From: an uncultured Nitrospiraceae bacterium
GTDB lineage: Bacteria; Nitrospirota; UBA9217
Assembly (NCBI GenBank): GCA_964586075.1
Contig: CAZPGZ010000001.1
Span: forward strand, 149,099 to 213,098
Direction: 5' to 3'
DNA: 64,000 bases
The position numbers and the translations under genes were made by a program. Shown here piece after piece: positions 4,850 to 63,756 of the stretch; position 1 is the first letter of the stretch; the number at the start of each line of letters is the position of its first letter. The notes beneath the pieces are model-generated. The model saw only the letters and a program-made list of their open reading frames with translations. It searched no databases and was not told where the DNA came from.

Positions 4850-4882
4850 TTCAAACTAAAAGAGGGGAACTAGTCCCCTCGT
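4850..4882 (-). terminator. Rho-independent terminator at the end of the chemosensory operon
   Basis: Hairpin GAGGGGA-actag-TCCCCTC (4862..4881), followed on the minus strand by TTTTAGTTT. It lies between the receiver-protein stop codon and the valS promoter region. Confidence 0.5.
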
Positions 4883-4912: not shown

Positions 4913-6187
4913 CTACGGTGTTTTCTTTAAACGCTCAATCTCTTCTTTGATCAGGTGCTCTGCCAACTGCGGAATTACTTCCCATGCCACCTGCTCAATT
5001 ATGCCCCGCGCAAGCTCCCGGGCCACAGTCATAACCGCTTCCTGGATGCCTCGCTTGATTGTTTCGTCGGATATTTTAGGAATGGGAGGAGGAGGCATAT
5101 CCTTCAATGCATTCATGGTCAACTTTGATGCCGTTTCCGCCACCAGTTTGCGCATATCCTCCATCGGCAATGCCGGTTGCGGAAGCGGCATGCTTTTCAG
5201 GCCATCCGCTACCTGCTTTGATACGGTCTCCGTCACCAGTTTGCGCACGTCGTCCAGCGAGAAAGGCGGCTGTTGCACCGGCGGAGGCACGTTTTTCAGG
5301 GCATCTGCTACCTGTTTTGATACGGTCTCCGCCACCAGTTTGCGCACATCGTCCATCAACAATACCGGCTGCGAAGTCGGCGGCATGGCTGGTTGTAAAA
5401 CGGGTGCGTGTCCCTGCGGCGTGAGAGGCACGGCAGACTGCGCTGTTTCGAACGTTGTATCGAACGATTCGAACGTGACAATCTCCGGCTTGATTTCGTC
5501 AGTTATTTCCGTCAGGCCTAAATTGGCCCGCATCTCTTCCACAGCTTTTGCGCCGGTCGGCAATGCCTGTTCTTCCTGAAGAGATGGCGCTTCGATTTCC
5601 TCGACAACAGGCTCAACCTCGAAAACCGAATCCTCTTCAACGGAGGCGGCAGCCTGTTTGAGATCCGCGCGCGTAGGCGCGCTGCTGATAATGTCGAAAA
5701 TAGATGTCGGCGCCTGCTTTGGTTCACTTGCGGTAACGGAAGGTCGAACGGTACGAGTCTCCTGCTTTGCCGCCTGCTGCTGCGGCTTCGGAGCGACAGG
5801 CGCTTCTCTGCGCGGCGGCGCTGATGCAAGCACTTTTTTCACCTTGCCGATGAGCTCTTGAGATTCGAACGGTTTGACGATTTTATCGGTGATTCCGGCC
5901 TGCTTGCCCTTCGCGGTATCATATACATCGTCTCTGCTCATCATCAGAACAACCGGAATGTGGGAAAGTTTCGGATTATTTTTGAGCTGCGTGGCAACCC
6001 CGTAGCCATCTACCCGCGGCAGATCTATATCAACCAGCACAACGCCCGGAACGGTCCTCTCCACCTCGTGCAGAGCAGCCTCTCCGTCGCTCACACAGAT
6101 GACTTCATACTCTCTTCCGGAAAACAGCATCTCCACGACCTTCTGGATGGTGATGCTTTTATCTGCCAATAGTAATTTAACCGGCAT
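4913..6187 (-). CDS. Response regulator (CheY-like receiver) with a Pro/Gln-rich linker, three 33-aa tandem repeats and a C-terminal amphipathic helix
   Basis: N-terminal REC domain (KLLLADKS...D...K). The C-terminal half contains three copies of D(D/M)VRKLVxETxSKxxxxALK...PPP. The track start at 6202 is a TTG codon, and the first ATG is at 6187. Confidence 0.8.
   Translation of the reverse strand: MPVKLLLADKSITIQKVVEMLFSGREYEVICVSDGEAALHEVERTVPGVVLVDIDLPRVDGYGVATQLKNNPKLSHIPVVLMMSRDDVYDTAKGKQAGITDKIVKPFESQELIGKVKKVLASAPPRREAPVAPKPQQQAAKQETRTVRPSVTASEPKQAPTSIFDIISSAPTRADLKQAAASVEEDSVFEVEPVVEEIEAPSLQEEQALPTGAKAVEEMRANLGLTEITDEIKPEIVTFESFDTTFETAQSAVPLTPQGHAPVLQPAMPPTSQPVLLMDDVRKLVAETVSKQVADALKNVPPPVQQPPFSLDDVRKLVTETVSKQVADGLKSMPLPQPALPMEDMRKLVAETASKLTMNALKDMPPPPIPKISDETIKRGIQEAVMTVARELARGIIEQVAWEVIPQLAEHLIKEEIERLKKTP
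5084..5353. repeat. Three tandem in-frame repeats of about 99 nt (about 90% identical) inside the receiver-protein gene
   Basis: The string tgatacggtctccg(t/c)caccagtttgcgcac recurs. The plus-strand shadow ORF 5107..5424 shows the same periodicity. Confidence 0.8.
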
Positions 6188-6629
6188 GGAACAACCTTTC
6201 AAAATCGAGGATCATGATCGACAGGTCGTTTTCAAAAACGACCCCTTTTACATAGTGTGGATCGACATCAGGCGCCGCTTCTGCCGGGGAGGATGTGCTT
6301 TCTTCCAGCATGGCCATTCGTGCTACACCGTCCACAACAATTCCGAACGGTATCTTTTTTTCTTCAAGCAGAATAATACTTTGTCCGGCACCGGTACTCT
6401 CGTTTGTTTCCGCCGCAAAGCCGATCGGCGCCGATCTGTTCAGGGCCAGCCTTTTTATCAGACTAAAGATCGGGTACACGGTCCCCCGATAATCGATCAG
6501 CCCCTCCACATAAGGATACGACAGCGGCACGGAACGAGACGCGCGCCACGGAAAGATCTCAATAGCACCGTGCAGCTTTGCACCAAAAAGCCTGCCGGCC
6601 AGATGGAACACCAGAAAGCTGCTGATCAT
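6177..6629 (-). CDS. cheW: Chemotaxis coupling protein CheW
   Basis: 150 aa single CheW-like domain. Its stop/start overlaps the adjacent che genes. Confidence 0.8.
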   Translation of the reverse strand: MISSFLVFHLAGRLFGAKLHGAIEIFPWRASRSVPLSYPYVEGLIDYRGTVYPIFSLIKRLALNRSAPIGFAAETNESTGAGQSIILLEEKKIPFGIVVDGVARMAMLEESTSSPAEAAPDVDPHYVKGVVFENDLSIMILDFERLFHAG

Positions 6630-7036
6630 GGCAGCAAACCGTCCTCGTTCAGCAGCAGAACAAGATTGTCTCCGTGCCGCAGAACGCCATTGTAGCAGTG
6701 GAGCCCCGGTGCGACAACTCCTTTCGGCATCGGAATTACGTTTTGGACAGAATCCAGGATATCGGTTACTGCATCGACGAGGATTCCGAAGGTCCGCTTT
6801 TTGTTTTTGACGACCAGAAGCGTCTCCAGCGGGCTGCTGGGAAGTTTGAATAATTTTTTAATGTTCAAAACCGGAATAGGCGACCCGCGATATTCAAACT
6901 TCCCTTCAAAAAAATCATCGAGGCTCGGATCGTTCTGAATATTGCGTGCAACCGTAATCTCCAGAAGCCTCGTGATGGGAATGGCGTACTGTTCGTGTTC
7001 CAAAGACAATATCAAAAACCGTTTGTTTTCAGCCAT
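6626..7036 (-). CDS. cheW: Chemotaxis coupling protein CheW
   Basis: CheW-like domain (FLILSLEHEQYAIPITRLLEI...). The ATG at 7036 sits 4 nt after the CheA stop codon. The track start at 7111 would overlap CheA. Confidence 0.8.
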   Translation of the reverse strand: MAENKRFLILSLEHEQYAIPITRLLEITVARNIQNDPSLDDFFEGKFEYRGSPIPVLNIKKLFKLPSSPLETLLVVKNKKRTFGILVDAVTDILDSVQNVIPMPKGVVAPGLHCYNGVLRHGDNLVLLLNEDGLLP

Positions 7037-7040
7037 AACG

Positions 7041-9725
7041 TTATGTCCGACTGGTAAGTACGGCTCCGCTGAGGAGTTTTTTGAGCGCATCGAGCATTTC
7101 CTGCTCTTCAAACGGTTTTACCAGATAATCCTGCGCTCCCATGTCCTGAGCCTTCTGGCGGTGTTTATCACCGGCCCGGGACGTAAGCACGATGATTGGA
7201 ATATTCGCGAGTTCGGGATTCTTTTTCATCTCGACCATCAGATCATATCCATGCATGACAGGCATTTCCAGGTCGGTAATAACGGCATCAAATTTCACCC
7301 GTCCCATGACGTTCAGGGCCTCCATGCCGTCTGGCGCCACGTGAACTTCATAGCCGGTCCGGTCAAGAAACCGCTGCACATATTTCCGGATGCTTATGGA
7401 GTCGTCAACAACAAGCACTCGCGGCTTTCTTGTAGAAATCTCAGGCGTTGATTCCGGTTTTGCCGATCCTACCGTCGTTCGGGATGCCATCGCAGCCTCA
7501 TCACCGAACAGCGACGCAATATTAAGAATAAGCCGCACGTTGCCGTCGCCGGAAATCGTCGCACCGGAAAACATCCTTATTTCCTTGAGGTAGTCTCCCA
7601 GCGTTTTGACCACGATTTCTTCCCGGCCGATAATGTCTTCCACCATAAGCGCGAGACGTTTTTCCGCCGAGCCGAGAATCAGCGTCGGCTGCCGGAATGT
7701 CTCCTCTTTTTTCGGCAATTTCCCGAGGCCGAGCAGTTCATTCAGTTTCAGAAGTTTTACCAAGGATCCGCGCAGGTTTACCATTTCCTCTCCTGCGGCA
7801 TGCTGAATATCTTTCGAAGAGAACCGTGTGGTTTCTTCGACCAGGTTCATGGGGACGGCTATTTCCTGGTCTTTAAGCTTTACAATAAGCGCTTGTGCAA
7901 TGGCCAGCGTGAGAGGAAGCCTGATCGAGAACTTCGTGCCGATATTTTTTTCCGTTTTTATTTCTATCCGGCCGTGAATGCGGACCAGTTGGTTCGCCAC
8001 CACGTCCATGCCCACGCCTCTTCCGGAAATCTTGCCTATGGTTGCAGCCGTGGAAAACCCGGGCTGAAAAATAAGATTAATGGCTTCCGGGTCTGTGAGA
8101 GCCTGGGCCGCCCCCGGAGTAATGAAACCCTTCTCAACAGCCGTGCTCCGGAGCATGGCCGGATCCATTCCGCGTCCATCATCCTCAATTTCAATAATGA
8201 TGCTGTTTCCCTCATGCCGCGCCTTCAGGACGAGAAGTCCGGTCGGATCCTTTCCGAGTGCCGTGCGCTCCGCAGCCGGTTCGATTCCATGCGATACCGC
8301 ATTTCTGATCATGTGCATAAGCGGATCAGATATGATTTCGAAGACCGTTTTATCGATCTTCGTTTCCCCGCCCGAAAGCACGATGTTTACCTGTTTCCGT
8401 TCTGCCTGCGCAAGATCGCGCACCAGCCTCGGAAACAGCTGATAGAGCTTGTCCATCTCAACCATGCGGGCCAGGGTAATTTCGTCCTGCAGGTTTGTTG
8501 TGATGGTGGAAATTCTCGCCGTATCAACCTCAAACGAGTCAAAGAATCCGGCAAGATCTGTCATGATTTCATTCGTGTCGTTCGTAATTTCCGTGAGTTT
8601 TCGGGAAAGCAGGTTAAAATCATCGTAGCGGTCGAATTCCAGCTCGAGAAAATCGCCGGTCTGTTCCGCCGGTTTTTCACTGGTCCCGGGCGCCTCTATG
8701 CTCAGCGTATATTCGTATTTTTCCTCGAATTTTTTGATCTCGTGCAGCAACCGGTTCTGGCTGAATGCAAGCTCCTCCCGCAGCACTTTTATAAAATCGA
8801 CCTGGTGCGCCAGACGGTTCCGGCTTACAATCATTTCCCCAACCAGATTCATCAGATTGTCGAGGCGATCAATGTTGACCCGAATAAACTGCTTTTCCAG
8901 ATCAGCAACGTCTGTAGCGCGGCGGTTGAAACCTCGCTTTTCAGAAACGCCCGATTTCTTTGCCTCGTCTATTTCCTGCTGAAGCGGCGATTTGTGCGCA
9001 GTCGAAGGCAAATCCGCACGGACTGCTGGAGTCTCCGGCAAGACATCCTGTTCTTCAATTTCCTCAACGGCTGTTTCAATTGCATCGATTTCCTCAAGTT
9101 CTTCCGGCTTTTCAACCTCATTAAGGGCTTGCAGTTCAGCCTCTGCCTCGGATTCCGGCTCCGTCTGAGGCCCTCCGACAGGTTCGAGGGCAGGTTCAGT
9201 AATTGGTTCAGCGACAATCGGCTCTTCCTCGAGACTAAAGGCTTGCTCCCAAGGCAAATTAAGATCTTCGGTCAGGATGGGTGCAACATCGAGATCCGGA
9301 ACGGCCGGGGAGGGAGTAACGGTCTTTTGCAGGCTCTCGGTAACGTCCTTGTATGCTCTGGCGATGCTGTCCACTACCAGCATGTCTTCAGGATCGTTGA
9401 CCGCGACACTGTCGACCATCAGTTTTATTGCGTCTACACTGTCAAAAAGAAAATTGAGGGATTCTTTGCAGATAGGAATGGTTCCTGAACGGAATTGGCC
9501 GAGCATGTCTTCGGCCTTATGCGCCACATCGCTGATGCCCTGGAACCCCATCATGGCAGCCGAGCCCTTCAGCGTATGTGCTGCGCGGAAAAGTTCGTCG
9601 ATCTGGGCAGTGTCAGATGGATCCTTCTCAATAGACAACAGTCCCTTATTCAGGTTCTGGAGGTGATCACCAGCTTCTACGAGAAAAAATTCAATAATGC
9701 CTGCTTTATCTGATGGCCCAGCCAT
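7041..9725 (-). CDS. cheA: Hybrid chemosensory histidine kinase CheA with a C-terminal receiver domain (FrzE-like)
   Basis: 894 aa. Domain order is Hpt (HTLKGSAAMMGF), acidic linker, dimerization domain, HATPase_c (EIEDDGRGMD, GRGVGMD), CheW-like domain, then REC (VLVVDDSISIRK...DLEMP...K). Confidence 0.9.
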   Translation of the reverse strand: MAGPSDKAGIIEFFLVEAGDHLQNLNKGLLSIEKDPSDTAQIDELFRAAHTLKGSAAMMGFQGISDVAHKAEDMLGQFRSGTIPICKESLNFLFDSVDAIKLMVDSVAVNDPEDMLVVDSIARAYKDVTESLQKTVTPSPAVPDLDVAPILTEDLNLPWEQAFSLEEEPIVAEPITEPALEPVGGPQTEPESEAEAELQALNEVEKPEELEEIDAIETAVEEIEEQDVLPETPAVRADLPSTAHKSPLQQEIDEAKKSGVSEKRGFNRRATDVADLEKQFIRVNIDRLDNLMNLVGEMIVSRNRLAHQVDFIKVLREELAFSQNRLLHEIKKFEEKYEYTLSIEAPGTSEKPAEQTGDFLELEFDRYDDFNLLSRKLTEITNDTNEIMTDLAGFFDSFEVDTARISTITTNLQDEITLARMVEMDKLYQLFPRLVRDLAQAERKQVNIVLSGGETKIDKTVFEIISDPLMHMIRNAVSHGIEPAAERTALGKDPTGLLVLKARHEGNSIIIEIEDDGRGMDPAMLRSTAVEKGFITPGAAQALTDPEAINLIFQPGFSTAATIGKISGRGVGMDVVANQLVRIHGRIEIKTEKNIGTKFSIRLPLTLAIAQALIVKLKDQEIAVPMNLVEETTRFSSKDIQHAAGEEMVNLRGSLVKLLKLNELLGLGKLPKKEETFRQPTLILGSAEKRLALMVEDIIGREEIVVKTLGDYLKEIRMFSGATISGDGNVRLILNIASLFGDEAAMASRTTVGSAKPESTPEISTRKPRVLVVDDSISIRKYVQRFLDRTGYEVHVAPDGMEALNVMGRVKFDAVITDLEMPVMHGYDLMVEMKKNPELANIPIIVLTSRAGDKHRQKAQDMGAQDYLVKPFEEQEMLDALKKLLSGAVLTSRT

Positions 9726-9733
9726 ACGGTCGT

Positions 9734-11590
9734 TTATTTAATCAGTCCGAGCTTTATTTCTTCGTCGCTTGTAGTAACATTTTCCGTAGCAGACGGGTAC
9801 CGCTCGAGTTCAGGAAGCGGTGCCTCCTGCTCTTTGCTGGTCTTGAATCTGCCGATTGCTTCTGTCAGGCGCGTGGTCAGGTCTGCCAGCTTGCTGATCG
9901 TCGTCACCGTGTCCTGCACGCCCTGGGTGGTTTCCTGTGTCAGTTTCGAAATACTGTCCATCGTATGCACAACGCCTTCTGTTGATTTCACCTGGTCTCC
10001 GGCGGCCCTGGTGATGTCCGTCATGAGACTTGCGGTCTGCTTCACGATTTGTTCGATTTCACGCAGCGCGGCGCCGGCCTGGTCGGCGAGCTTGGTTCCT
10101 TCCTCCACTTCCCGCGTGCCTTCCTCCATGACCGCCACAGCTTCGCTTGTTTCAACCTGAATGCCTTTAATGAGGCCGGTAATATCTTTCGTTGAGCGGG
10201 CAGCCCGTTCAGCCAGTTTTCGCACTTCGTCCGCAACGACGGCAAAGCCCCTGCCCTGCTCACCGGCGCGGGCGGCTTCGATTGCGGCATTCAATGCAAG
10301 CAGGTTCGTCTGTGTAGCGATTTCGCTGATCACCTCGATAATGGCGCCGATTTCGAGCGATCGCTCGCCCAGTCCCTTGATTTTCTTTCCGGTGGATTGC
10401 ACAGTGGCCCGGATACGCTGCATACCTTTGATCGTTTCCGCCACGGCCGTTCCGCCCTTGACCGCCGCCTGGGTCGCCTTCACTGATGTCTGCGTGGCCG
10501 CTTCGGCGTTCTCGGCCATGTGCTGGGTAGTAAGCGACATGGCGTTGACCGCCTCTGCCGCGTTTCTGATCTGGGCAGTCTGCTGTGAAGCGCCGGACCG
10601 CATGCGTTCGGATGACTGCAAAATTTCCGAGGTAGAGCGCTGCACCTCGACCGCCACGGTACTGGCCTGCGTGATCAGCGACGTAAGACCGGTGATCATG
10701 AGGTTGAACGCGTCGGCAACCGATCCGAGTGCGTCGGCGGTAACTTCTGCTTTCGCGGTAAGGTCGCCTTCCGCGGCCGTACTCACGACTGAAAGAAGTC
10801 CGATGACCTGGCTCTGCATCTTATCGCGGTCGGTCTCTGACTGAACAAGGCCCTGCAGGCGTTCGATGGTCTGGTTCAGGGTGATTGCCAGCTGCCCGAG
10901 TTCATCGCCGGTGTCAACGACGGCCTTGTTTGAAAGATCTCCGCGCCCCACGGCTTCCGCCACCCGGATAAGCTCCTTGGTCGGCGCGACAGTGCGTGAC
11001 GACATGTACAGACTGAGAATGGTCAAAACGATCAGCGATACTGCGCCAAGTCCCATGATATTCAGAAGAATGGACCTGATATGATAATTGATTGCCGTCA
11101 TGTTCAGACCTATATGCACCGTGCCGAGGGTTCCTCCGGATATCGGCGTGGCGATATCGATTACGCTGAGCGGGTTTCCTTTTAGAACAATGTCTGCCGG
11201 CTGCGTTCCATACGCGACGCCGGGCATCAGTTTGTTTATCTGCTGGAGATCTGCGGGGACGGCGTTCCCTTCAAAGGAGGACGAGAGCACCCGCCCTCTG
11301 GCGTCACGAATAAAGGAGTAGGCCACTTCCGGCTGCGACGCAGCTTCGTTTCTGAACATCTGAAGCGCGTTGATGTCCTCAACCTGCATCGCCTCCACAA
11401 CCTTTGAACTCAGACCATCGGCCATGATGATGGTTCTATTGATCACATCATCCCGCTGGGAAGCCTGTATCTGGTTGTATATGTAAAAGAGGATGAAACC
11501 ACCAAAAACGACTGAGAGGAAAACAATATGGGCCACTATTTTGGCTCGGATGCTCCACCCATAAAAAGGATTCAGCGTTTTCTTGTTCAT
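9734..11590 (-). CDS. Methyl-accepting chemotaxis protein with two transmembrane helices, a periplasmic sensor, HAMP and an MCP signalling domain
   Basis: 618 aa. It contains the conserved MCP signalling core (...[40 protein letters not shown]...). Confidence 0.9.
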
Positions 11591-11675
11591 AAAATTACTC
11601 CTTCGTAGCGTTCTGGTTTCGTGAATTCGGTGGCTTTGCGTTAGCCGTGCGATTCGTTGTCGGAATGCTGACGGT

Positions 11676-12170
11676 TCAAGTCAGTTTTATCTCTTCTATA
11701 AGGCGCTCGATATTCAAAACTGCGGCCAAACCGGTCTCTCGCTGTAAAATTCCTCTAAAAAAACGGCTGCGGCTTTTGCTGGCTTTCGCGCCATAATCAG
11801 CCGGAATGGCCAGCACACTGCTTACGGGAACCGAAATAACTTCGGAGACATTATCAACAACAATGCCCAGCGTAATGGTGCCCTGTTTTATAATGGCAAT
11901 CTGGTTCGTGGTCGCGGGATTTTGTGTGAGCGAAAGTGTTTCTCGTATATCAACAATGGGAACAATGTTTCCACGAAGGTTAATAACGCCGAGCACATGA
12001 GGCGGGGTGGTCGGGACAGGAAAAATATTCTGAGGAATGATGATTTCCGTCAGCAATTCGACCGGTATGGCATACGTGTCCTCGCCAATAGTGAAGAGGC
12101 AAACTCGAATTTCCTCTTCCGGTTGTGTACTGTTTACCTCGACGGTGACGTCGCTGTCAGTCTCGGCCAA
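11676..12170 (-). CDS. cheW: Chemotaxis coupling protein CheW
   Basis: 164 aa CheW-like domain. Confidence 0.8.
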
Positions 12171-12192
12171 ACGGGCCCCCTTTTTTAGGGAT

Positions 12193-12552
12193 TTAGATAT
12201 ACTTTTTAACTGCCTTCAGCAGATCCTCGGGCTTGAACGGCTTGGTCAAATACTCATCCGCACCCTGCTTCATTCCCCAGAATTTATCGCTTTCCTGGTC
12301 TTTGGAGGTTACCATGATAACAGGTATTTTTTTGTATTGGTCATTGCTCTTGATGTCTCTGCAGACCTGAAAACCATTTTTTTTAGGCATGATGACATCT
12401 AAAATGATCAAGTCGATTTTTTCCGATTTGATCTTCTCCTCTGCCGCTTCTCCATCGAGAACGGTTATGATCGAATGGCCCGTAGGTTGAAGGGTTTGCT
12501 GGAGGATTTGAAGCTCAGCCACGCTATCATCCGCAATGAGTATTTTGGCCAT
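12193..12552 (-). CDS. cheY: Single-domain response regulator (CheY-like)
   Basis: 119 aa receiver only (KILIADDS...DLIILDVIMP...MVTSK). Confidence 0.85.
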   Translation of the reverse strand: MAKILIADDSVAELQILQQTLQPTGHSIITVLDGEAAEEKIKSEKIDLIILDVIMPKKNGFQVCRDIKSNDQYKKIPVIMVTSKDQESDKFWGMKQGADEYLTKPFKPEDLLKAVKKYI

Positions 12553-12683
12553 GCCAGTCTCCTTTTTCTCCTGATTACAGGTTACTAAAAATTAACACAT
12601 TTCTTTGGTTCTGTCAAGTTTTCGTTTTATTCGGCACGTGATCGGTGAAGAAAAACAGGGGATTATCGTGCCGGCAAAAAAGT

Positions 12684-13983
12684 TCAGCGCCGTTTCCTGA
12701 TAAGATTGACCGAAAGCAGGATAAACAGGCTTTTGGCCACATCAAACTCGCTCAAATCAGCCTGGTCAATAATTTTCTGGACGGTTTTCCGCCCGTCGAC
12801 CAGGGAAAAAACTTTCATATCGATATCGCTCATGCCGCGGGTCGTAAGTTCTTCTGCATCGCCGATTATCGGTTCAAACACAATGTTGAAATCCGGCATT
12901 TTTTGCTGGATCAGGCTCCATTCATCCGCCCGCCGGGCGCCTTCCAGAAGCAAATCGTCCACTTTCAGTTGCACGTGGTTGGTAAACACCGGCGGTGCAA
13001 CTTTTTCAAAGAAAAAAGCGCCTTGCTTCCAGGTCATGACCCGGTAGACTGCGGCCTCGGTATAGCGTTTCAGGGCCTCGCAAAAAGCCGCGGCACCAAG
13101 CAGTTTCTCCTGGATAAGAATGCTGTCAAGAGACTGCTGCGTCATTTTTGCAATACGCAAAACATGCTGCAGGCTGTCCTCTTCAAGCCTGCACGCTTTC
13201 CTGAGAAACCCTTCCATGGCGACACTGTCACTGCCGTTGCTGTTGGGTGACGCAAAAACAACCTGTCCGTCTTTAAAGCAAATCGCGACGCTGCTGCCCG
13301 GTTTGTTGACGACTAATTTTCCGGTCTGGCGCTGCAGCCCGAGCATCTGTATCACTTCCACGATCGGCACGCTTGCAAGATTCCCCTGGATGCCGGTGCT
13401 GCCGCCGCCCGGCCGCACCTTCGCCAGCTCCTGCTGTATTTTCTGCGGAAGCGTGTTCTTTACGAAGTCGTCGAGCAGTTGTTCGACGATATTTTTCACC
13501 ATGGATTCAATAACGCCTTGCGCAGCCTGCACACCCGGACCCGGGGCCGGTGCGGGCCGCCCGCCCGGTTCTCTAACCGGAGGCGGGGCCGCAGGCTGCA
13601 CCGCCGGCTTGCTCTTGTCGATTACTTCCCGAATTTTGGCAAGAAGCTCTTCGGGCTGAAACGGCTTGGTAAAATATTCGGTAATGCCGAGAACATCGAC
13701 GAATTTGCTGCCGACCTTGTCGCCCTTGGACGTTACCAGGATAATAGGCGTGTCTTTGAACTCCGGGTCTTCTTTCAGGATCTTGCAAACCTGGAATCCG
13801 TTCATCTTCGGCATGACAAAGTCAACAAGAATCACGGCGGGACGTTCGGACCGGGCTTTCGCAATGCCTTCATCGCCGTCGGACGCCAGAACGACCTGAT
13901 AGCCTTGCGTCGTCAGAATCATCTCGATCAGTCGTTGGACTGTCGGACTATCATCTATGTCAAGTATTTTTTCCCCTGCCATG
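12684..13983 (-). CDS. Response regulator with an N-terminal receiver, a Pro/Ala-rich linker and a C-terminal DUF4388 (PATAN-like) domain
   Basis: REC domain (KILDIDDSPTV...DFVMP). The signature GNLASVPIVEVIQMLGLQRQTGKLVV...ICFKDGQVVFA matches the DUF4388 consensus (GxL..L.DLLQ.L....TG.L). The ATG at 13983 follows a GGGGG RBS. The track start at 14009 adds 9 aa. Confidence 0.75.
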
Positions 13984-14149
13984 TATGCCCCCGAAGTGCA
14001 GCTTCCCAAATTTTAGAATATTAGCATGATAAAAAAGTCATTGTCAACTGCTTATATATGCATTTGGAAGAAGCCCGCTGCGCTTATTCGTTGCGTCACG
14101 GAACGCAGCAGTATGCGGCAGAGAGATCAGGTGAATACAGCCACCGGAA

Positions 14150-25850: not shown

Positions 25851-27788
25851 AAAGATTCCCCTCGGCTGAAATAACGTTCTCTGTGTTTACTCTACTTTTT
25901 ATTTATAGACGTAAAATAAGGGCTGAGAGGATTATCCCTACCAAATAATAGATGTTTATAGGTATTACTAGAACACTCTATGCTGCCACAATTCAAATTT
26001 TCTAAATAGGCCTTTTCATGTAACTGCAGCATTCTTAATGATGTTTCAATGCTTAACCGCACGCTAATCTTATCACTTAATCTAATCAAAGCATTCATAA
26101 GAATATCGAAATATGTATGGAGGTTTTCAACAAGTGTATTTAAATACGGCAAAGCTGAAGCGGAGTGAACTATTTGGTTTCTAGTCGTATAAATTCTTTG
26201 AATATGCCACGCTACCCGTTGACGGTGAGAGGAAATAGTTTCCTTGATTATTTCTGGTTTGTGAAATTTTTCATGACACCAATAGCATCGATTCTTCAAA
26301 AGTGGGTGTTTTTCTAATAAACCGTAAATGTGCAATCTGCAATCTTTCAAATCTGATGAAATGAGAAGACAAATGGATTTATCGAAAAAATTACCTTCCA
26401 CTGGAAGCTCTTCTATATAATTGCGTACAGAATAACCACCATGAAATAGATTTTCGCTTGTATCCTTAAATATTTTTTCAACATACGTTAGTGTAAGTGA
26501 AGGCAATAAATAGTTAAGGTATTGAGTAATTCTTGCCTGTCCATCATCTTCTCTTGGAGGTGGCAAAAAGCCTTCGAGTGCTGCCCATAAACTTACAAGT
26601 TGGTTTTCCGGAGCTACCCCCTCGATTGCTGTCCGGTGATAATCCATTGCCTTTACAAATAAATTTATAGAAGACTCGTCGAATTTACCTTTACCAAGCG
26701 TTTCTATAGTTTCATCAAAGTTTCCAACAAACTTGGCCCTTGTTACTGTGCCACGCTCCATAGGTGCGGGTGGTGATTTAACAACAAAATATTCCTCCTC
26801 ACCATCCCTTTTTACAACACAATTTTGCAACCACGTTGGCTTTCGGTGATGATCATAAAAGCGGTAGATATCGGCAAGCAATTCAATAGATGAGTTTGCT
26901 AATTGACGTGCTATAAACCTGTCTTTTGTTTTGATTTTATCAAATATGATATATTGCGTGTATTGTTCATTTATTCCTAGCAAACCATGCAGGTGTTTCC
27001 TAGATTCTATTTCACTCGGTAACGTATCCAATATTTTAACATCAAGGTTTTCCGCGACCTTTTTAAGTTGACTAAATTCCGCTGATCCTCTAAATATAAT
27101 TTTCCAGGAAATATCCTTTCCTTCAAAAATATCTAAAAATGCTTTTATCTGAGAATGCGAATTTATTTTCCTGGGTAGTGCGGTCCAATTAAAAAAATAA
27201 TTAAGCGTCATAAAGTACAGAAATTGTTTGCTATAACCTCGTAGTTCAATTTCAGCGGTTAAAGCTACTGCCAGTTCTGTGAGCTTTTTTTTCTCATTCG
27301 GATACGCTACGGTCTGCTCAATCTTTCTTCTTAACAAGTACCAATACTTATCTGCAATTTCCGTAAGGAGTGCTCTAGTCGTTGCTCTCAAATCCTCCGG
27401 ATTTTTTGTAAGTTCTTTGAGGTTTTTCAAATATTGCGTACTCAGTTCGGGCATATCTTCTTTAATGATAGGATCGTTCTTAAATCGATTTTCAAGTTCC
27501 TCTACAACTGGATTAAGAGCAGCGGGCTTGACTCGCCCTTTAATTAATTCTGATGCCAGCAAATTTAGCTCTAGAATATTTGTGTGCGTATTCAATGCGG
27601 GAGCCTTGAAAGAGTCAATCGTGTGATGAAATAATAATTCCTCTAATATCTGCGCAAAAAATAGCAAACCCATAGAAGCATCACTCAAATCCCATTTATA
27701 AAGACGCGGCTTAATCATATATGATTTCTCCTTTTTTCAGACCTACTTGGAGATACTGAGGCATTTAAGAAGCGCTTTGGGGACGTTG
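25851..27788. mobile_element. AT-rich cassette of about 1.94 kb bounded by 14-bp perfect inverted repeats (CTTTGGGGACGTTG). No transposase is present.
   Basis: Left copy CAACGTCCCCAAAG at 25851-64. Right copy CTTTGGGGACGTTG at 27775-88, plus an imperfect tandem copy at 27799-813. GC content is visibly much lower than the flanks. Confidence 0.35.
25892..27718 (-). CDS. Large hypothetical protein with a C-terminal HEPN-type Rx4H motif (RNQIVH), proposed here as a candidate abortive-infection or defence RNase
   Basis: 608 aa filling the AT-rich cassette. The motif ...IYTTRNQIVHSASALPYLNTLVENL is HEPN-like (R-x4-H). A CYWCHEKFH Cys/His cluster sits just upstream of it. Confidence 0.55.
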   Translation of the reverse strand: MIKPRLYKWDLSDASMGLLFFAQILEELLFHHTIDSFKAPALNTHTNILELNLLASELIKGRVKPAALNPVVEELENRFKNDPIIKEDMPELSTQYLKNLKELTKNPEDLRATTRALLTEIADKYWYLLRRKIEQTVAYPNEKKKLTELAVALTAEIELRGYSKQFLYFMTLNYFFNWTALPRKINSHSQIKAFLDIFEGKDISWKIIFRGSAEFSQLKKVAENLDVKILDTLPSEIESRKHLHGLLGINEQYTQYIIFDKIKTKDRFIARQLANSSIELLADIYRFYDHHRKPTWLQNCVVKRDGEEEYFVVKSPPAPMERGTVTRAKFVGNFDETIETLGKGKFDESSINLFVKAMDYHRTAIEGVAPENQLVSLWAALEGFLPPPREDDGQARITQYLNYLLPSLTLTYVEKIFKDTSENLFHGGYSVRNYIEELPVEGNFFDKSICLLISSDLKDCRLHIYGLLEKHPLLKNRCYWCHEKFHKPEIIKETISSHRQRVAWHIQRIYTTRNQIVHSASALPYLNTLVENLHTYFDILMNALIRLSDKISVRLSIETSLRMLQLHEKAYLENLNCGSIECSSNTYKHLLFGRDNPLSPYFTSINKK

Positions 27789-30918: not shown

Positions 30919-32103
30919 TCAGAAGAGATCGAGGACTGTCTGGGCCGCCTGTGATGAGAGGCTGAGCGAGGTGGTGCCGAGCGATTCCCGGGTCTGGAGC
31001 ATCAACATGTTGGCCCCTTCCTGGTTCATGTCGGCAAGGGTAAGCTCGTCAACCCCGACCTGCAGGCTGTTGACCATGCTGGTCGTGAAATCCTCGCGCG
31101 TCGTAACAATGCTCAGATTGGAAGAGAGGCTTGCAGAGTAGTTCTGGAGGGTGGTCACGGCGGAATTCAGCTCGTTTATCGAGGCCTGTATGCCGCCGGA
31201 AGCGAGCCAGGAGTTGCTGCCGGGCGTGGTTACGGTTATGGAGTTCGGCGCGCCGGTTGTGTGGTTGAAACCGCTCGCGTCGTACTGAATCGAGACCGCG
31301 TCGCCGATGTTGAACGTGCCGGACACCACCAGGGCCCAATAGTCTCCACCAATGGAAGGCGGCTGATAACCACTGGCATCCACGGAATCGCCGGTTGCTA
31401 TTGCTCCTGTCACGGAATCGACAATTCTGTAATTGAACGGATTCGCGTTCATGAGATTTCCCAGCGCGGCCGTTACCGTGCCGGCGCCGAGCTTGACAAT
31501 GTGATAGGTAGAGTCATAACTTGACACTGTCGCCGTCTGGAGAGTTGTGACCGTGCTCGTGACGATCTGCGTGCTGCTTGCCGTGTTCGCCGCGTGCAGG
31601 CCGAGCCCGGTGCTCGAGCCGTCGAACCCGTTGATCTGAAGCGAATTCCCGCTCGTGCTGTCGAAGATGACGGTCAGATTCTGGGACGCGAGAAAGTCGG
31701 TGCCGGAATAGCCAGAGTCGCGGGACATCTGCGTGATCTGGCCCAAAATTGTGTCAAACTGCGCGGCGTAAGAGTTGATCGCAGTCGTGTCGGACGTGGC
31801 AAGCGCGGACTGGGCCAGGCCTTTTGCGGCATCGATCAGCCTGGTAATGCCGGAGATGCCGTCGTTCGCGGCCTGAATGGTGCTGACCGCGTTCGACATA
31901 GAGTCTTTCAGACCCGTCAGATTGGAGGCACGCATATTGAGCGTCTGGGCCGCGAAAAAGCTGGTGGGATTATCAAGGGCGGTGTTCACTTTTTTCCCGG
32001 TGGCAAGACGCTCCTGTGTCCTGTTCAGGAGACTTGACGTCTTCTGCAGGCTGATGAGATTCGACCTCATTCCCGTTGTCAGCGATATGTCATTGATGCC
32101 CAT
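30919..32103 (-). CDS. fliC: Flagellin (divergent FliC-like)
   Basis: Conserved flagellin N-terminal domain (...LATGKKVNTALDNPTSFFAAQ...ANDGIS) and C-terminal domain (...ANMLMLQTRESLGTTSLSLSSQAAQTVLDLF). The ATG at 32103 follows a GAGG. Confidence 0.85.
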   Translation of the reverse strand: MGINDISLTTGMRSNLISLQKTSSLLNRTQERLATGKKVNTALDNPTSFFAAQTLNMRASNLTGLKDSMSNAVSTIQAANDGISGITRLIDAAKGLAQSALATSDTTAINSYAAQFDTILGQITQMSRDSGYSGTDFLASQNLTVIFDSTSGNSLQINGFDGSSTGLGLHAANTASSTQIVTSTVTTLQTATVSSYDSTYHIVKLGAGTVTAALGNLMNANPFNYRIVDSVTGAIATGDSVDASGYQPPSIGGDYWALVVSGTFNIGDAVSIQYDASGFNHTTGAPNSITVTTPGSNSWLASGGIQASINELNSAVTTLQNYSASLSSNLSIVTTREDFTTSMVNSLQVGVDELTLADMNQEGANMLMLQTRESLGTTSLSLSSQAAQTVLDLF

Positions 32104-32223
32104 TTCCCTGGCCTCGACCTCTTGGCAGAACAATCACGCCCGATTTCTAATATCGTTGCGACCTTTCGCGTAACTAATTTAAAAAAAGCACACGAATCCC
32201 GTGTTTTGCTCTTGCTGCTATGC

Positions 32224-32842: not shown

Positions 32843-33193
32843 CTACATCTCGCGCGTCAACTGCACTACGACCTCATTCACTTTCATACCTTCATCATGG
32901 AGTGTCCAGGTCTGCGTGATGCTGTACTTGCCTTCAATGGTTATGCCATGAGCGGGCATGTGCACTTTTTTCAACGAAACGAGGTTCGGCGCTTTTTTCG
33001 ACAAGGCAAACTGCATGGTGTTGTCTCCGGATTTCGCGAGCTCCATATGAGGCTGGTTCCCGACGGAACAAGAATGGGTCATGGCAAGCTTTCCATTATT
33101 GTCATGTATACGGTTGGCCCGTCGCAAACTTTTCGACAATCGCGTTCCCTGCAGACGCGAGTTCATAAGTGACCTTTGTGCAAAAGCCTTCAT
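32843..33193 (-). CDS. Hypothetical 116-aa protein translationally coupled to the caspase gene
   Basis: Its start overlaps the caspase stop codon (ATGA-type overlap at 33193). It has no recognisable domain. Confidence 0.4.
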   Translation of the reverse strand: MKAFAQRSLMNSRLQGTRLSKSLRRANRIHDNNGKLAMTHSCSVGNQPHMELAKSGDNTMQFALSKKAPNLVSLKKVHMPAHGITIEGKYSITQTWTLHDEGMKVNEVVVQLTREM

Positions 33194-34560
33194 TATCTAT
33201 TCGGCCCGATCAATTGCGGTATTTGTTCATTGTTATACTGTTTTCTGGCTATCCGCTCCACTTGGGGTTTCATGTAGCTAAACAGATCCTGTATCGCGAG
33301 CGAGCCGTCCTGTTTTACAACATTCTCATTCTTGATTCCCTTGAGTAAAAAATAGGTAAAGAGACCGTGGCCCTTCTCGTCATAGGTCGAGCTGCTCTGT
33401 TCGCCCGAGGAAGCTGCAAGAACAGTTATGTTTTTTGCCATTACTGCGTCATGCTTGAGATTCATGACAAGAGGACGGGCGCCTTTCGCAAGGACCGATC
33501 TGCCGCCCGCGCCCGAGAAGCATGAATCAAGCACAACAATGATTTCCTTTGCCGGTAGCTTTCCCAGGGCGTCGTACATTCTCTTCAGCGAATAACCCGT
33601 CTCCGCGATAAACGTCGGGTCGCCGTCATAGGGAACAAGATAAGCATCCCCCGTCTTGGTGTTGGGAGCCCCGTGTCCCGAATAGTAGATGAAAACAGTA
33701 CTCCCGTGTTCTATATTATTCGGGAGCCATCGCTCGATGTATTTTACAAAATCCCCCAACGCCGCCCGGTCATTTGTGAGGGTAATGATGTTTTCCGCCG
33801 GATACCCCATGGCTTTCGTCAGGTAGTCGGTCACGGTCTGCGCGTCGCTCACGGCAAAATCTGCCGCGGGTAGTTTCTGGCGGTACTGCTCGATTCCGAT
33901 GACAACGGCGTACGCGTTGGGATTCGTCTTCGATTTTGTGATCTGGATGTCGTCGACATCGGATCTGATGAGCGGTTTTGCAGCCTGAGGAAGAGCATCC
34001 TGCCGGCCAAGCTTTGCCAGGATCAACGGACGGCTCTCTTCGATCCTCAGACAGAGATTTTCAATTGCCTGCACCATGGCGCTGTTCATCGGCTCGACGT
34101 CAGCGCTCGCGGAAAACCTCGTCATGCCGCCTTGTACTGTGCTTTGTCCTGAAAACGAACCGAGATCACGCCCGTCCTTCGAAATCAACGCCGCCTTCAA
34201 ATTCGCGGCGTATTGAAAAGAATTGCCTTGCCGCAAGTGGTAGGTGACGTCAATGTTCAGCACGCTGTCCGCAAGGCCGTCCAAAACACGGTCGAATGTC
34301 GAGCGGGCCGCGAGATACCGTACGATCATCCTCTTCAACGATTCCTTGTCTACAGCGATCGGGGTCACTGGATTTGGATCTTCCTCCTTGACCCCCCGAA
34401 TTTCCACATGCACCGAAAACGGCACGGGAACCAGGCTCCTTGACGGAGAATCGACGGGCGCGATCATGACCGTGCGGGACGTGGCGCACCCGCTGAGCAC
34501 AACGGCCGCAAGTAGCATCAGGATCACACTGATTGAGGATATCTTACGCGTTCTGTTCAT
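33193..34560 (-). CDS. Lipoprotein with a C-terminal caspase (peptidase C14) domain
   Basis: Lipobox (LSGC). The caspase His-Cys dyad sits in YYSGHG ... VLDSCFSGAG. An N-terminal domain of about 200 aa is unassigned. The ATG at 34560 follows a GGGGG. Confidence 0.8.
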   Translation of the reverse strand: MNRTRKISSISVILMLLAAVVLSGCATSRTVMIAPVDSPSRSLVPVPFSVHVEIRGVKEEDPNPVTPIAVDKESLKRMIVRYLAARSTFDRVLDGLADSVLNIDVTYHLRQGNSFQYAANLKAALISKDGRDLGSFSGQSTVQGGMTRFSASADVEPMNSAMVQAIENLCLRIEESRPLILAKLGRQDALPQAAKPLIRSDVDDIQITKSKTNPNAYAVVIGIEQYRQKLPAADFAVSDAQTVTDYLTKAMGYPAENIITLTNDRAALGDFVKYIERWLPNNIEHGSTVFIYYSGHGAPNTKTGDAYLVPYDGDPTFIAETGYSLKRMYDALGKLPAKEIIVVLDSCFSGAGGRSVLAKGARPLVMNLKHDAVMAKNITVLAASSGEQSSSTYDEKGHGLFTYFLLKGIKNENVVKQDGSLAIQDLFSYMKPQVERIARKQYNNEQIPQLIGPNR

Positions 34561-34814
34561 AACCTGCCCCCTGGCGGATCGTTGTGTTTGACGGACAACC
34601 AACACGCATTGTCTCTCTAAAAACCAAGCACGCAATAGCAACCCACACTTTTTATGAAATATTATATTTTTCTTTCCCGGCTTTGTAAAGTTATTTACGC
34701 CGATGTTATATGTATCCTACATTGCTGCTTACTGTGTACCTCTATCTTTTTAAAAACTTCGTCTCGCAGGGATTGACTTTTCCCTCTCTTCAATCGTATA
34801 CTTCTTCACGCGCC

Positions 34815-36388: not shown

Positions 36389-37033
36389 TTACTTTTTTGC
36401 CGTGACAACAAATAAGGCGCTTTTCCTTCCGACTTCAGGGTGAATATTTTGAAGTGCAGTGCTTTCCCCTATTTTCATTCCACGCAGCTCGCTTTCTAAT
36501 TCATCGGACGAAAAAAAATGAAAGAGTTTGCCTGTTCCGTCATCATACGTATTCGTTTCTATTTCCTTCCATTCGTGTCTCGGATATGATTCGTCCTCCA
36601 GTGACAGCACGCTCATAAACAAGCAGCCATCTTGCTTCAGCACCCGTTTTGCCTGCGTGAGCACCGCTCCTCGTTCTTTTTCGGTCAAACAGTGGAGTGA
36701 ATTCAGCATGACCACCAGGTCAAATGAATCATTCGGCATGCTCTTCGGAATGGAATCGTGCCTGATAAAGCTGCATTTCCCTCCGGGATTTTCATTTTTA
36801 TACGACTTTGCCTTTTCGATTGCTTTGACGGAAATGTCGATTCCGGTGACGTCAAAACCTTCTTTGGTCATAAGAACGGAATAGGCGCCGTCACCGCAAC
36901 CGAAATCCAGTATTGTTTTAACCGGAACTCTATGGAGAAATTGTTGAAGCATGCTCCAGAGGGGTTCATAAATCGGCGTGGACTTGCTTTCTTCGTAGTC
37001 TTTGTCCCATGGATTTACACTATTCGCTGCCAT
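36389..37033 (-). CDS. Class I SAM-dependent methyltransferase
   Basis: Motif I ILDFGCGDG. Confidence 0.8.
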   Translation of the reverse strand: MAANSVNPWDKDYEESKSTPIYEPLWSMLQQFLHRVPVKTILDFGCGDGAYSVLMTKEGFDVTGIDISVKAIEKAKSYKNENPGGKCSFIRHDSIPKSMPNDSFDLVVMLNSLHCLTEKERGAVLTQAKRVLKQDGCLFMSVLSLEDESYPRHEWKEIETNTYDDGTGKLFHFFSSDELESELRGMKIGESTALQNIHPEVGRKSALFVVTAKK

Positions 37034-37136
37034 ATTTCTGCCTTCTTTATCCGGCTGTCAATACTTTTTCAAGAAAAAAAGTACCACCATTGCTATCTGC
37101 CTGCGGTATTGACGAGGTCCTGGCACAGTCTTCCCG

Positions 37137-37715
37137 CTATTTCAGCTTGTTTAAATAATCGGCAAGCCCCACGCGGTCATCGCGCTTATCGCGCATTTCA
37201 TTGACGATTTTTTTTACCCATACATCACCGGTTCCTGCATTCAGAACAATCTTTCTCCCCTGCTTTCCGCCCGTGTCCTCTGCTACCAGTTTCAATTTGT
37301 ATTTATCGATGAGTATGTGCGCCATTTCGATATTTTGCTTCCCTATGGACTTTGTGGGATAGGCCACCTTGAGCACATCAGCGCCGCCGAAAATTTTCAC
37401 ATCCAGCTCGTGCGGCGCGACGCCCAGAGATTGGATTGTATCGATCAGCGTTTCGGTGGAACCGGCCACATACTTGAGAGGGTTGTCTTCAGTCGCGGCA
37501 TTGCACTTTACCGGGCAGTTGTCAACACAGCAGTGATGTGTTTTTTCCATGGGAAGCTGCGCGTGAGACAACGCGGCAAGACGGCGTCGTTTGCTGTATA
37601 AAACAAAAGACAGGCACGAACCCAGAATCGTGGTTATGATAAGCGGTTTGTCGGTAATGTACGCTTCTCCGGGCATGAGCGTTACATCAGCCTTGTTTTC
37701 CAGGTCATGTCTCAT
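37137..37715 (-). CDS. cheD: Chemoreceptor glutamine deamidase CheD (orphan, far from the che operon)
   Basis: ILGSC...KIFGGA...EDTGGKQGRKI are CheD hallmarks. There is a Cys-rich insertion (HCCVDNCPVKC). Confidence 0.8.
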   Translation of the reverse strand: MRHDLENKADVTLMPGEAYITDKPLIITTILGSCLSFVLYSKRRRLAALSHAQLPMEKTHHCCVDNCPVKCNAATEDNPLKYVAGSTETLIDTIQSLGVAPHELDVKIFGGADVLKVAYPTKSIGKQNIEMAHILIDKYKLKLVAEDTGGKQGRKIVLNAGTGDVWVKKIVNEMRDKRDDRVGLADYLNKLK

Positions 37716-60222: not shown

Positions 60223-60378
60223 AGGCCACCATTTTGAAAGTTATTGTATCATAAAAAGGCGCTTCCAAGTAAAAAACTCCAAAAAAGCATACGGATACGT
60301 CTGGTTTTTTTGTACCACCCTGTCAGAACCGTTAAAAATGGCTTTTTCGTGCTTCTTCATTGTGGTAATATATGGTTT

Positions 60379-61755
60379 ATGCTTGAGCAGGACACAATTT
60401 GTGCGGTTTCTACTCCTCCGGGAGAGGGCGGCATCGGAATTATCCGCATCAGCGGCAGAACGTCTGTTGCAATTGCTGATAAAATTTTCAGGCTGCGCAG
60501 TGCAGAGGCGGGAAGCCTTGAAACCGCACCAACACATTCTCTCCACTACGGTTATATTATCGATCCGACTACCCAGGAACAGGTTGACGAAGTCCTGGCA
60601 AGTGTAATGCGCTCCCCAGCCACCTACACGCGCGAAGATGTCGTCGAAATAAACTGCCACGGCGGCATGATGCCGCTTTGGCGCACCCTGTCGTTGCTCA
60701 TCGCGGCCGGCGCCCGGCAGGCAGAGCCGGGGGAGTTTACAAAACGTGCTTTTTTAAACGGACGAATTGATTTGACCCAGGCTGAAGCGGTTATGGATAT
60801 CATCAAATCTAAGACGGCCCTGGCGCATCGTGCGGCGAACGATCAGTTGCTCGGCGGATTATCCTCCGAGGTTGCCTCGCTCCGCAATCAATTGCTTTCG
60901 TTCACTGCGGCGGTGGAGGCCTGGATAGATTTTCCGGAAGAGGACATTGAGTTTGGTACAGGCTCCCGGCCGGCTGACACTGTTGTGCAGCTGATTGGGG
61001 GAGTGGAATCCCTGCTTTCTACTTACAACTACGGCAGAATTCTTCGGGATGGATTCGCGACGGCCATTGTCGGCCGGCCTAATGTGGGCAAGTCTTCCCT
61101 GTTGAACACCCTTCTTAAGCAGAATCGCGCGATTGTTACGGACGTACCGGGCACAACAAGGGATCTGCTCGAGGAATATCTCAATGTTGCAGGAATTCCC
61201 TTAAAAATCATCGATACGGCCGGAATCAGGCATTCACACGATATCGTGGAAAAAGAAGGTATCCGCAGAACCCTTGCCGCAATTGAATCTGCGGATATTG
61301 TTTTGGTGGTGCTCGATGGCTCCCGAAAGCTTACGCCGGAGGATCGGCTGGTGCTGGAGTATGTAGCCGGAAAAAATGCCGTCGCGGTAATTAATAAGTC
61401 CGATTTGCCCAGGGAAATGGAAGCCCTGAATCAACCTGTAGTACAGGTGTCGATTTCCTGCATTACCGGGGAGGGTCTCGAAGAGCTGAAGGGTGCCATC
61501 CTAAATATGCAAAAACAGGGGGTTGCACTGGCGCGTGACCATGCCTGGACCGTAAATCTGCGCCATAAAACCGCACTGGAACAAACTCGTGAAAGCCTGC
61601 TCAAAGCGCACGCCTCGATTAAGGACAATGCTTCACCGGAATTTATCGCTCTTGATCTTCGCTGCGCCCTGGACAGTCTCGGCATTATTACCGGCGCAAC
61701 ATACACGGAAGATATTCTCGAAAGAATTTTTGAAAATTTCTGCATCGGAAAATAA
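60379..61755 (+). CDS. mnmE: tRNA modification GTPase MnmE
   Basis: The ATG at 60379 gives MLEQDTICAVSTPPGEGGIGIIRISG. There is a G-domain (GRPNVGKSSL, DTAG, NKSD) and a C-terminal CIGK. Confidence 0.9.
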   Translation: MLEQDTICAVSTPPGEGGIGIIRISGRTSVAIADKIFRLRSAEAGSLETAPTHSLHYGYIIDPTTQEQVDEVLASVMRSPATYTREDVVEINCHGGMMPLWRTLSLLIAAGARQAEPGEFTKRAFLNGRIDLTQAEAVMDIIKSKTALAHRAANDQLLGGLSSEVASLRNQLLSFTAAVEAWIDFPEEDIEFGTGSRPADTVVQLIGGVESLLSTYNYGRILRDGFATAIVGRPNVGKSSLLNTLLKQNRAIVTDVPGTTRDLLEEYLNVAGIPLKIIDTAGIRHSHDIVEKEGIRRTLAAIESADIVLVVLDGSRKLTPEDRLVLEYVAGKNAVAVINKSDLPREMEALNQPVVQVSISCITGEGLEELKGAILNMQKQGVALARDHAWTVNLRHKTALEQTRESLLKAHASIKDNASPEFIALDLRCALDSLGIITGATYTEDILERIFENFCIGK

Positions 61756-61829
61756 TAATACGAATAGTTTATACAGAAACAAACCGTATTACCACACTAT
61801 TGCTTCGTTTTCTCGCTTTGGGATGGTTC

Positions 61830-63725: not shown

Positions 63726-63756
63726 AAACCCTCAGGATTTGTTGAAATCAGGTTCA

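Follow-up and report, generated by a model that had tools for sequence, protein, structure and literature searches.

An operon of eight genes in a 64,000-nucleotide stretch of DNA from an uncultured Nitrospiraceae bacterium (contig CAZPGZ010000001.1; hereafter the window) encodes a chemosensory (Che) pathway built around a CheA kinase with a fused receiver domain (CheA-REC). We consider it likely, with reasonable rather than high confidence, that this is a methylation-independent pathway that steers type IV pili or cell-pole polarity and not the flagellar motor. By sequence and gene neighbourhood, the last gene of the operon encodes a RomR homologue; in Myxococcus, RomR is one of the central parts of the switch between front and rear polarity. 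The Che core appears to work like the type IV pilus (Tfp) class of chemosensory systems and is probably a divergent member of it.

Gene content and conservation of the operon

Eight co-directional open reading frames (ORFs) occupy the minus strand from 4913 to 13982, and we number them G1 to G8 in the order of transcription. Their number, order and domains had been listed in an earlier reading made from the letters alone (the sequence-only reading); Pfam searches returned the same domain content, and the same eight genes appear in a public gene call made independently for the source contig (172.6 kb, JGI metagenome 3300022666). G1 (12684–13982) encodes a receiver (REC) domain and a DUF4388/PatA_N (PATAN) domain separated by a Pro-rich linker, and is the candidate main output. 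G2 (12193–12552) is a single-domain CheY-like receiver of the PixH/PilH type. G3 (11676–12170) encodes the coupling protein CheW1 (Pfam CheW, E = 2e-30), which is kept in related loci. G4 (9734–11590) encodes a transmembrane methyl-accepting chemotaxis protein (MCP) with HAMP and signalling domains, and G5 (7041–9725) the CheA-REC hybrid kinase. The accessory coupling proteins CheW2 and CheW3 are encoded by G6 (6626–7036; Pfam CheW, E = 4e-18) and G7 (6177–6629; E = 6e-21), respectively. G8 (4913–6187) encodes the RomR homologue, with a REC domain, a Pro-rich linker containing three repeats of ~33 amino acids (aa), and a RomR-C helix.

The eight genes form one transcription unit. From G1 to G6 they are separated by 131, 22, 85, 8 and 4 nt, and the last two junctions are overlaps, of 4 nt between G6 and G7 and of 11 nt between G7 and G8. 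The proposal of a single operon closed by a terminator before valS was borne out by this tight spacing and by a hairpin with a T-run at 4880–4862. This intrinsic-terminator-like element (4862–4880, minus strand) lies between G8 and valS and reads GAGGGGACTAGTTCCCCTC followed by TTTTAG, with a 7-bp stem that includes 5 GC pairs. At the other end, a candidate sigma-70-type promoter at 14018–14047 (minus strand; TTGACA, 18 nt, TG-TAATAT) scored 10/12 in a consensus scan, with an extended -10 element, and ends ~35 nt upstream of the G1 ATG. It is a consensus match only, and the count of promoter-like matches across the region equals chance expectation.

When each species was represented by one genome, scanning for the CheA gave matches in 46 Nitrospirota genomes, with identities of 63–97%. 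The closest genome is OY760142.1, the complete 3.26-Mb chromosome of a metagenome-assembled Nitrospirota genome, with a CheA identity of 97%. Of the 46 related loci, 43 include G1 and 42 have valS directly downstream. The arrangement is not a chance one: operon and valS are conserved together in 46 Nitrospirota species genomes. Both CheA and G8 occur in 42 loci; of these, 28 have CheW2 as well as CheW3, 11 have neither, and 3 have the pair in part. Where both are missing, the RomR-like gene stands straight after the kinase gene (loci L010, L012–L015, L018, L027, L030, L031, L035 and L041). Since these 11 related genomes keep the RomR-like gene, the CheW2/CheW3 pair is dispensable in part of the lineage.

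The RomR-like protein G8

The sequence-only reading had described G8 as a receiver protein with a Pro-rich linker and repeats, a correct description that missed its RomR identity. Outside the receiver, G8 matched no Pfam family, and a word-indexed search recovered Nitrospirota-type regulators only. Comparison of its C-terminus with Pfam and the Protein Data Bank (PDB) gave nothing meaningful, and no RomR structure was present among the PDB receiver matches. Queried with the 83 C-terminal residues, HMMER returned 297 matches among 1.84 billion representative proteins. Among the 66 longer ones, 56 were receiver proteins, with the ending motif E-[KR]-[IV]-A-W-E-V-[IV]-P-x-L-A-E-x-x-I-[KR]-E-E. 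A second search, started from the match P0407, led to a 420-aa protein of Myxococcus xanthus named 'motility regulator RomR' in UniRef.

Direct comparison showed similarity to RomR in both conserved regions. In BLASTP, the two REC domains were 39% identical (E = 1e-25), and the G8 C-terminus matched RomR residues 377–414 with 22 identities in 42 positions (52%, E = 3e-10). The G8 receiver scored 92.8 bits against that of RomR and at most 83.6 bits against the receivers of its own operon. Profile-profile comparison of the two receivers gave an E-value of 1.9e-39, with the common motifs TIQKVV/TIRKVI and KPFESQ. In the reverse direction, a profile of the Nitrospirota C-termini matched all 24 of 24 Myxococcaceae RomR proteins at 36–50 bits. 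The RomR interface residues E390, W394 and E402 are conserved, and mutation showed that W394 is required for MglC binding (PMC12719032). G8 keeps the Trp at the W394 position, with Glu at -4 and at +8 in identical spacing.

The AlphaFold2 model of G8 has a confident REC domain, low confidence over most of residues 127–277, three repeat helices in the linker, and one long helix at 374–422 with a predicted local distance difference test score of ~90. Given the low confidence, the linker is presumably disordered; the orthologues vary in length from 314 to 589 aa. This predicted layout matches the published layout of RomR.

The gene neighbourhood agrees across phyla. The window has the order CheW2, CheW3, G8, valS, nadC and birA. 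In M. xanthus (L089, 9069–16117), the gene for MXAN4462, a protein with two CheW domains, is followed by romR, valS and nadC; these romR neighbours are also stated in the first RomR paper (Leonardy 2007). A Thermodesulfobacteriota genome (L088) has a RomR-like gene followed by valS, nadC and birA; no che gene stands upstream there, the 1.4 kb to the contig end containing no coding sequence. On homology in both conserved regions and the common romR-valS-nadC neighbourhood, G8 is a RomR homologue and, as judged from these comparisons, the positional orthologue of romR. The first half of MXAN4462 matches the CheW2 profile weakly (18.6 bits) and the CheW3 profile does not match, so orthology of the CheW pair with MXAN4462 rests on position, not on sequence.

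The G8 receiver differs from that of RomR in its acidic pocket. Codon 10 of G8 (window 6160–6162) specifies Lys at the position of CheY D13 (ADKS, a DK pair), where M. xanthus RomR has DD, and this Lys is found in at least 90% of the 46 G8 orthologues. In CheY, the D13K substitution abolishes phosphorylation and activates the protein. Because Lys replaces the residue equivalent to D13, the G8 receiver may be a docking module and not a phospho-acceptor.

Regulators of the RomR-C type also occur in other lineages (L092, 814–3758; L086, 2405–11320). One of them follows fliA-flgM, and another follows a PilC-like T2SSF gene and three FHA-domain genes.

Class and proposed working of the pathway

The likeness of the Che core to the Tfp class is drawn from its gene order, its PATAN regulator, the long dimerization region of its CheA and a gapless alignment of its MCP. 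G5 has five Pfam domains, namely one Hpt domain, the dimerization domain, the kinase domain, a CheW-like P5 domain and a C-terminal REC at residues 770–881; no P2 domain was detected with Pfam. The span from the start of the dimerization domain (P3) to the N-box is 190 aa in G5 and 187–195 aa in its lineage. The same span measures 112 aa in Escherichia coli CheA and 109–118 aa in classical CheAs, compared with 185 aa in Marinobacterium ChpA, 149–224 aa in cyanobacteria and 166–191 aa in Deinococcus. The dimerization region of G5 is thus ~78 residues longer than that of classical CheAs. The longest CheA dimerization domains are reported from the Tfp class, and the extension has been described for Tfp-class CheAs of Cyanobacteria and Chloroflexota (PMC10782961). 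Many homologues of G5 (66–76% identity) are named 'chemosensory pili system protein ChpA' by the JGI pipeline.

G4 contains the MCPsignal (E = 5e-47) and HAMP (E = 2e-11) domains. Hydropathy places hydrophobic segments at residues ~16–38 and 171–197, with a predicted periplasmic domain of ~130 aa between them; the sCache_3_2 match is weak (E = 2e-4) and under the Pfam cut-off. Alignment of G4 with the Allocoleopsis MCP ran over 317 aa with zero gaps. The best match of G4, a Deinococcus MCP (37% identity), required 4 gaps in 393 aa, and PilJ required 5 gaps in 420 aa, compared with 34 gaps for E. coli Tar. A segment upstream of the signalling domain, 'DLTxR..VT.D..G.VAD', is common to G4 and the cyanobacterial, Deinococcus and PilJ receptors. 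By these alignments, the signalling domain of G4 falls into one length class with those of PilJ and the cyanobacterial Tax receptors.

The CheY-like protein G2 (Pfam REC, E = 1e-28) is 84–98% identical across the lineage, far above the conservation of the kinase. Among the reference loci, the CheY of the Allocoleopsis Pix/Tax-type operon matched it best (45% identity, 122 bits); identity to E. coli CheY is 26%. G1 matched Response_reg (E = 4e-24) and DUF4388/PatA_N (E = 1e-27, 97 bits). In the numbering of a 441-aa ORF that begins at an upstream TTG, its receiver spans residues 15–127 and its PATAN domain residues 208–365; the called protein has 432 aa, and 9 is to be subtracted from these coordinates. 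The PATAN domain carries an insertion, since its 158 residues match a profile of 122 positions. The receivers of G1, G2 and G5 have the full catalytic residue set, and in G1 the acidic pocket, the phospho-acceptor Asp, the Thr and the Lys are all present.

An NCBIfam scan of all eight proteins gave generic CheA, CheW, MCP and receiver matches under the cut-offs, which do not discriminate classes. In a neighbour-joining tree of the CheA core region (381 columns, 200 bootstraps; no bona fide FrzE or WspE included), the Nitrospirota clade belongs to a larger group, composed of CheAs with a receiver and related CheAs, that has 84% support. Support around the clade is too weak for this tree to assign either the Tfp or the ACF class. 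For other Nitrospirota, ACF or F1 CheAs are given among the entries available from Table S2 of the class survey (PMC10782961).

Enzymes of methylation-based adaptation were searched with Pfam on nearly all large ORFs of the window and with tblastn on the window and 47 related loci, using E. coli CheB, CheR and CheZ and two other CheBs (Deinococcales and deltaproteobacterial) as queries. As the sequence-only reading had noted for CheB and CheR in the window, no CheB catalytic domain, CheR or CheZ was found in the window or the 47 related loci; tblastn returned receiver-domain matches only. The methylation-site consensus had no match in G4, and the same pattern recovered the four known sites in E. 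coli Tar. The only cheD, reported earlier at 37137–37715, was confirmed at that position as an orphan gene with no linkage to the operon. It adjoins a 214-aa class I methyltransferase dependent on S-adenosylmethionine (SAM) at 36389–37033 (minus strand), which scored 27.5 bits in the CheR SAM domain against a cut-off of 27. We rejected this protein as a CheR: it is a class I enzyme of generic type that matches CheR only in part and close to the cut-off, and it has no CheR N-terminal domain. The cheD gene, also on the minus strand, lies directly upstream of it, with a flavin mononucleotide (FMN) reductase gene and other redox genes on its other side, and the two genes at 36389–37715 may constitute an unusual CheD–methyltransferase pair.

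From gene and domain content, conservation, homology and synteny we infer a flow of signals, a pilus or MglA-type target and a role for CheW2 and CheW3. G4 would sense a periplasmic signal and, via CheW1, control the kinase G5, which would phosphorylate G1 as the output and G2 as an antagonist or phosphate sink. In Synechocystis, PixL phosphorylates the PATAN regulator PixG, PixG binds PilB1, and PixH antagonises PixG (PMC11181946). The output domain there is PATAN, whose binding partners are PilB1 and PilC; once phosphorylated, the regulator is found at the leading pole, and the PixL receiver has been proposed as a phosphate sink (PMC11181946). By analogy, the G1 PATAN domain, once released by phosphorylation, would bind the pilus motor and/or MglB-type polarity proteins, and the receiver fused to G5 would take the place of a phosphatase as one more sink. 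Adaptation by methylation would be absent from the pathway. G8 would serve as a polar scaffold whose C-terminal helix binds an MglC/MglB-type partner, and together with CheW2 and CheW3, which may dock it, it would tie the array to an MglA polarity module at the pole. The sequence-only reading had linked DUF4388/PATAN receivers to MglA-type GTPases as their typical associates. That link is plausible mainly through the RomR likeness of G8; the genomic association is looser than had been stated, PATAN genes adjoining mglA/mglB only occasionally (PMC4316618).

Several observations weigh against a Tfp-like pathway with a pilus or polarity target. Searches of the 64-kb window and ~11 kb beyond its ends found no pilus, mglA, mglB, mglC or romX genes, and the contig stretch past the window ends contains only housekeeping and origin-proximal genes. 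In the CheA tree, the Nitrospirota clade stands beside Deferribacteres CheA-REC proteins with a short dimerization region (52–58% bootstrap) and is not nested in the subgroup of cyanobacterial, ChpA and Deinococcus kinases. CheW1, CheW2 and CheW3 are no nearer to CheWs of the pilus class than to E. coli CheW. The PATAN domain comes first in two regulators of cyanobacterial operons, and G1 has the reversed order with the receiver first. The G8 receiver is missing one acidic pocket residue, which argues against simple phosphotransfer to RomR. Finally, a 404-aa ORF in the window (30919–32133, minus strand) contains a Flagellin_N domain (E = 3.7e-11). Given this flagellin-like gene, the organism is probably flagellated, and its genome should contain a second Che system, for the flagella, at another place. 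The operon may thus have some input to the flagella or engage in cross-talk with that system.

The absence of motility genes near the operon also fits a rather unlikely alternative, in which RomR and PATAN are polar-targeting modules of a non-motility polar or developmental process, such as organelle placement, division asymmetry, aggregation or matrix export. PatA is a regulator of heterocyst patterning (cited in PMC4316618), Bdellovibrio RomR serves prey invasion with phosphorylation seemingly unneeded for its polar positioning or activity (PMC6428892), and the Lys at the D13 position of G8 fits a scaffold role. However, the characterised PATAN regulators of Che operons and RomR all act on type IV pili or gliding polarity, and the operon encodes no enzymatic output domain (GGDEF, HTH or similar). 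If pilus and Mgl genes prove absent from the genome, the operon would represent modules used for another polar process.

An accessory pathway to the flagellar motor, in which G5 would be a CheA-REC of a class such as F3 or F5 and G2 a motor-binding CheY, is improbable. The flagellin-like gene favours it, as do the RomR-C-bearing regulator found after fliA-flgM in one other lineage and the occurrence of CheA-REC kinases in the F3 and F5 classes as well as in Tfp (PMC10782961). Yet none of the 46 loci has flagellar or motor genes beside the operon, the systems from which PATAN and RomR outputs are known are those of pili and polarity, and identity between G2 and E. coli CheY is only 26%. In F5 CheAs the CheW domain is nearly always duplicated (PMC10782961), a duplication that G5 lacks, and both the length of the dimerization region and the register of the MCP agree with the pilus class. 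As far as testable here, G5 was not placed in a flagellar (F) class, the finding that the sequence-only reading had named as contrary to its proposal of a non-flagellar pathway. The pathway is very probably non-flagellar and concerned with surface motility or polarity, as had been proposed.

Away from the operon, the window contains a 608-aa ORF (25892–27718, minus strand) with no Pfam family. This stretch has 38% G+C, compared with ~52% for the window, and may have been acquired from elsewhere. A 482-aa protein (33193–34641, minus strand) has a C-terminal caspase-like (Peptidase_C14) domain and an N-terminal half with no assigned domain. At 60244–64000 of the window and 1–9615 of L094 lie mnmE, mnmG, rsmG, parA, parB and a bactofilin gene, the usual set beside a chromosomal replication origin.

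Meaning and comparison with known systems

From the operon we would expect this widespread and uncultured lineage of Nitrospirota to move on surfaces and to regulate the polarity of that movement. The two known ways in which type IV pili are steered would be combined in it, PATAN acting on the motor as in cyanobacteria and RomR/MglA polarity as in myxobacteria. Its components are all of known kinds; the combination is new, namely the reversed PATAN regulator, the RomR receiver with Lys at the D13 position, and the 2xCheW-romR-valS block shared with M. xanthus. A literature search on RomR with Nitrospirota or with PATAN found no paper describing romR inside a Che operon. The first RomR paper states that no kinase gene flanks romR in M. 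xanthus and that the cognate kinase had yet to be identified (Leonardy 2007); G5, CheW2 and CheW3 provide a candidate set of kinase and adaptors for RomR. In a 2012 survey, all 26 of 26 genomes with intact RomR had MglA, MglB and type IV pili (PMC3441718). We tentatively suggest, as a possibility with fewer chances for it than against it, that the Nitrospirota operon keeps the ancestral arrangement, with RomR and the CheW pair within a CheA pathway, and that MXAN4462-romR-valS is a relic of it. CheW2 and CheW3 would then dock RomR onto the array, the signalling partner of RomR would be a CheA-type kinase, and the Lys would make the receiver permanently 'on' or non-phosphorylatable.

The plasmid operon of Allocoleopsis PCC 7113 (L084) has the same order as the window operon, with a PatA-type regulator, CheY, CheW, MCP, CheA-REC and CheW, and the order of pixG-H-I-J-L in the Tax1 operon of Synechocystis is that of G1–G5. 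As in the window operon, cheB and cheR are not annotated in the Allocoleopsis stretch, and an extended CheA dimerization region is found in both. The cyanobacterial Tax/Pix receptors have a photosensory GAF module, whereas G4 has a periplasmic domain instead, and PixL has two Hpt domains (PMC11181946) where G5 has one. Relative to the cyanobacterial Tax/Pix operons, two extra CheW genes and the RomR gene are appended in the window.

The Pil-Chp system, represented by Marinobacterium (L074), shares with the window operon the order of two regulators (PilG and PilH), CheW (PilI), MCP (PilJ), CheA-REC (ChpA) and CheW (ChpC). It differs in possessing CheR (PilK) and CheB (ChpB), in a PilG that has no PATAN domain, and in having no RomR; ChpA also has many Hpt domains (PMC10782961), compared with one in G5. 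A megaplasmid cluster of Deinococcus (L083) comprises CheY, CheW, two MCPs, CheA-REC, a DUF4388 protein and a response regulator. The likeness lies in a CheA-REC with a 191-aa dimerization span, a PATAN/DUF4388 protein and extra regulators. In this cluster, however, PATAN is a separate protein encoded after the kinase and no RomR-C protein is present, and a related Deinococcales locus carries a CheB, unlike the window operon.

The Frz pathway of M. xanthus is functionally tied to RomR, MglA and MglB, and the sequence-only reading had called the window operon Frz-like. This label was not sustained. The Frz-type feature that G5 does show, a CheA with a fused C-terminal receiver, is common also to the Tfp, F3 and F5 classes. 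Of the parts that define Frz, an ACF-class system, the window operon has no cytoplasmic FrzCD receptor, no FrzF (CheR), no FrzG (CheB) and no dual-receiver FrzZ; its receptor has two transmembrane segments, and each of its three stand-alone regulators, G1, G2 and G8, has a single receiver domain by Pfam. A true Frz-type system (FrzE subfamily, ACF class), as an orthologue of the Myxococcus reversal-control pathway stripped of its methylation enzymes, is less probable still than a flagellar pathway: the fused receiver, the several CheWs, the RomR homologue in the operon, the action of M. xanthus Frz on RomR/MglA/MglB (PMC3441718) and the existence of putative Frz systems in other myxobacteria, some with membrane-bound receptors and one without FrzF/FrzG (PMC3441718, Figure S6 legend), speak for it, but the genes are ordered as in Pix/Tax and Pil-Chp and not as frzA-B-CD-E-G-F, the G5 dimerization region is longer than the 85–120 residues of the ACF entries available from Table S2 (PMC10782961), and Frz is a very small subfamily of the Myxococcales (PMC3441718). 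Common to both are the connection of a CheA-REC pathway with RomR and the neighbourhood of romR, but M. xanthus romR adjoins no kinase gene (Leonardy 2007), whereas in this different phylum its positional orthologue is the last, translationally coupled gene of a CheA operon that includes a PATAN regulator.

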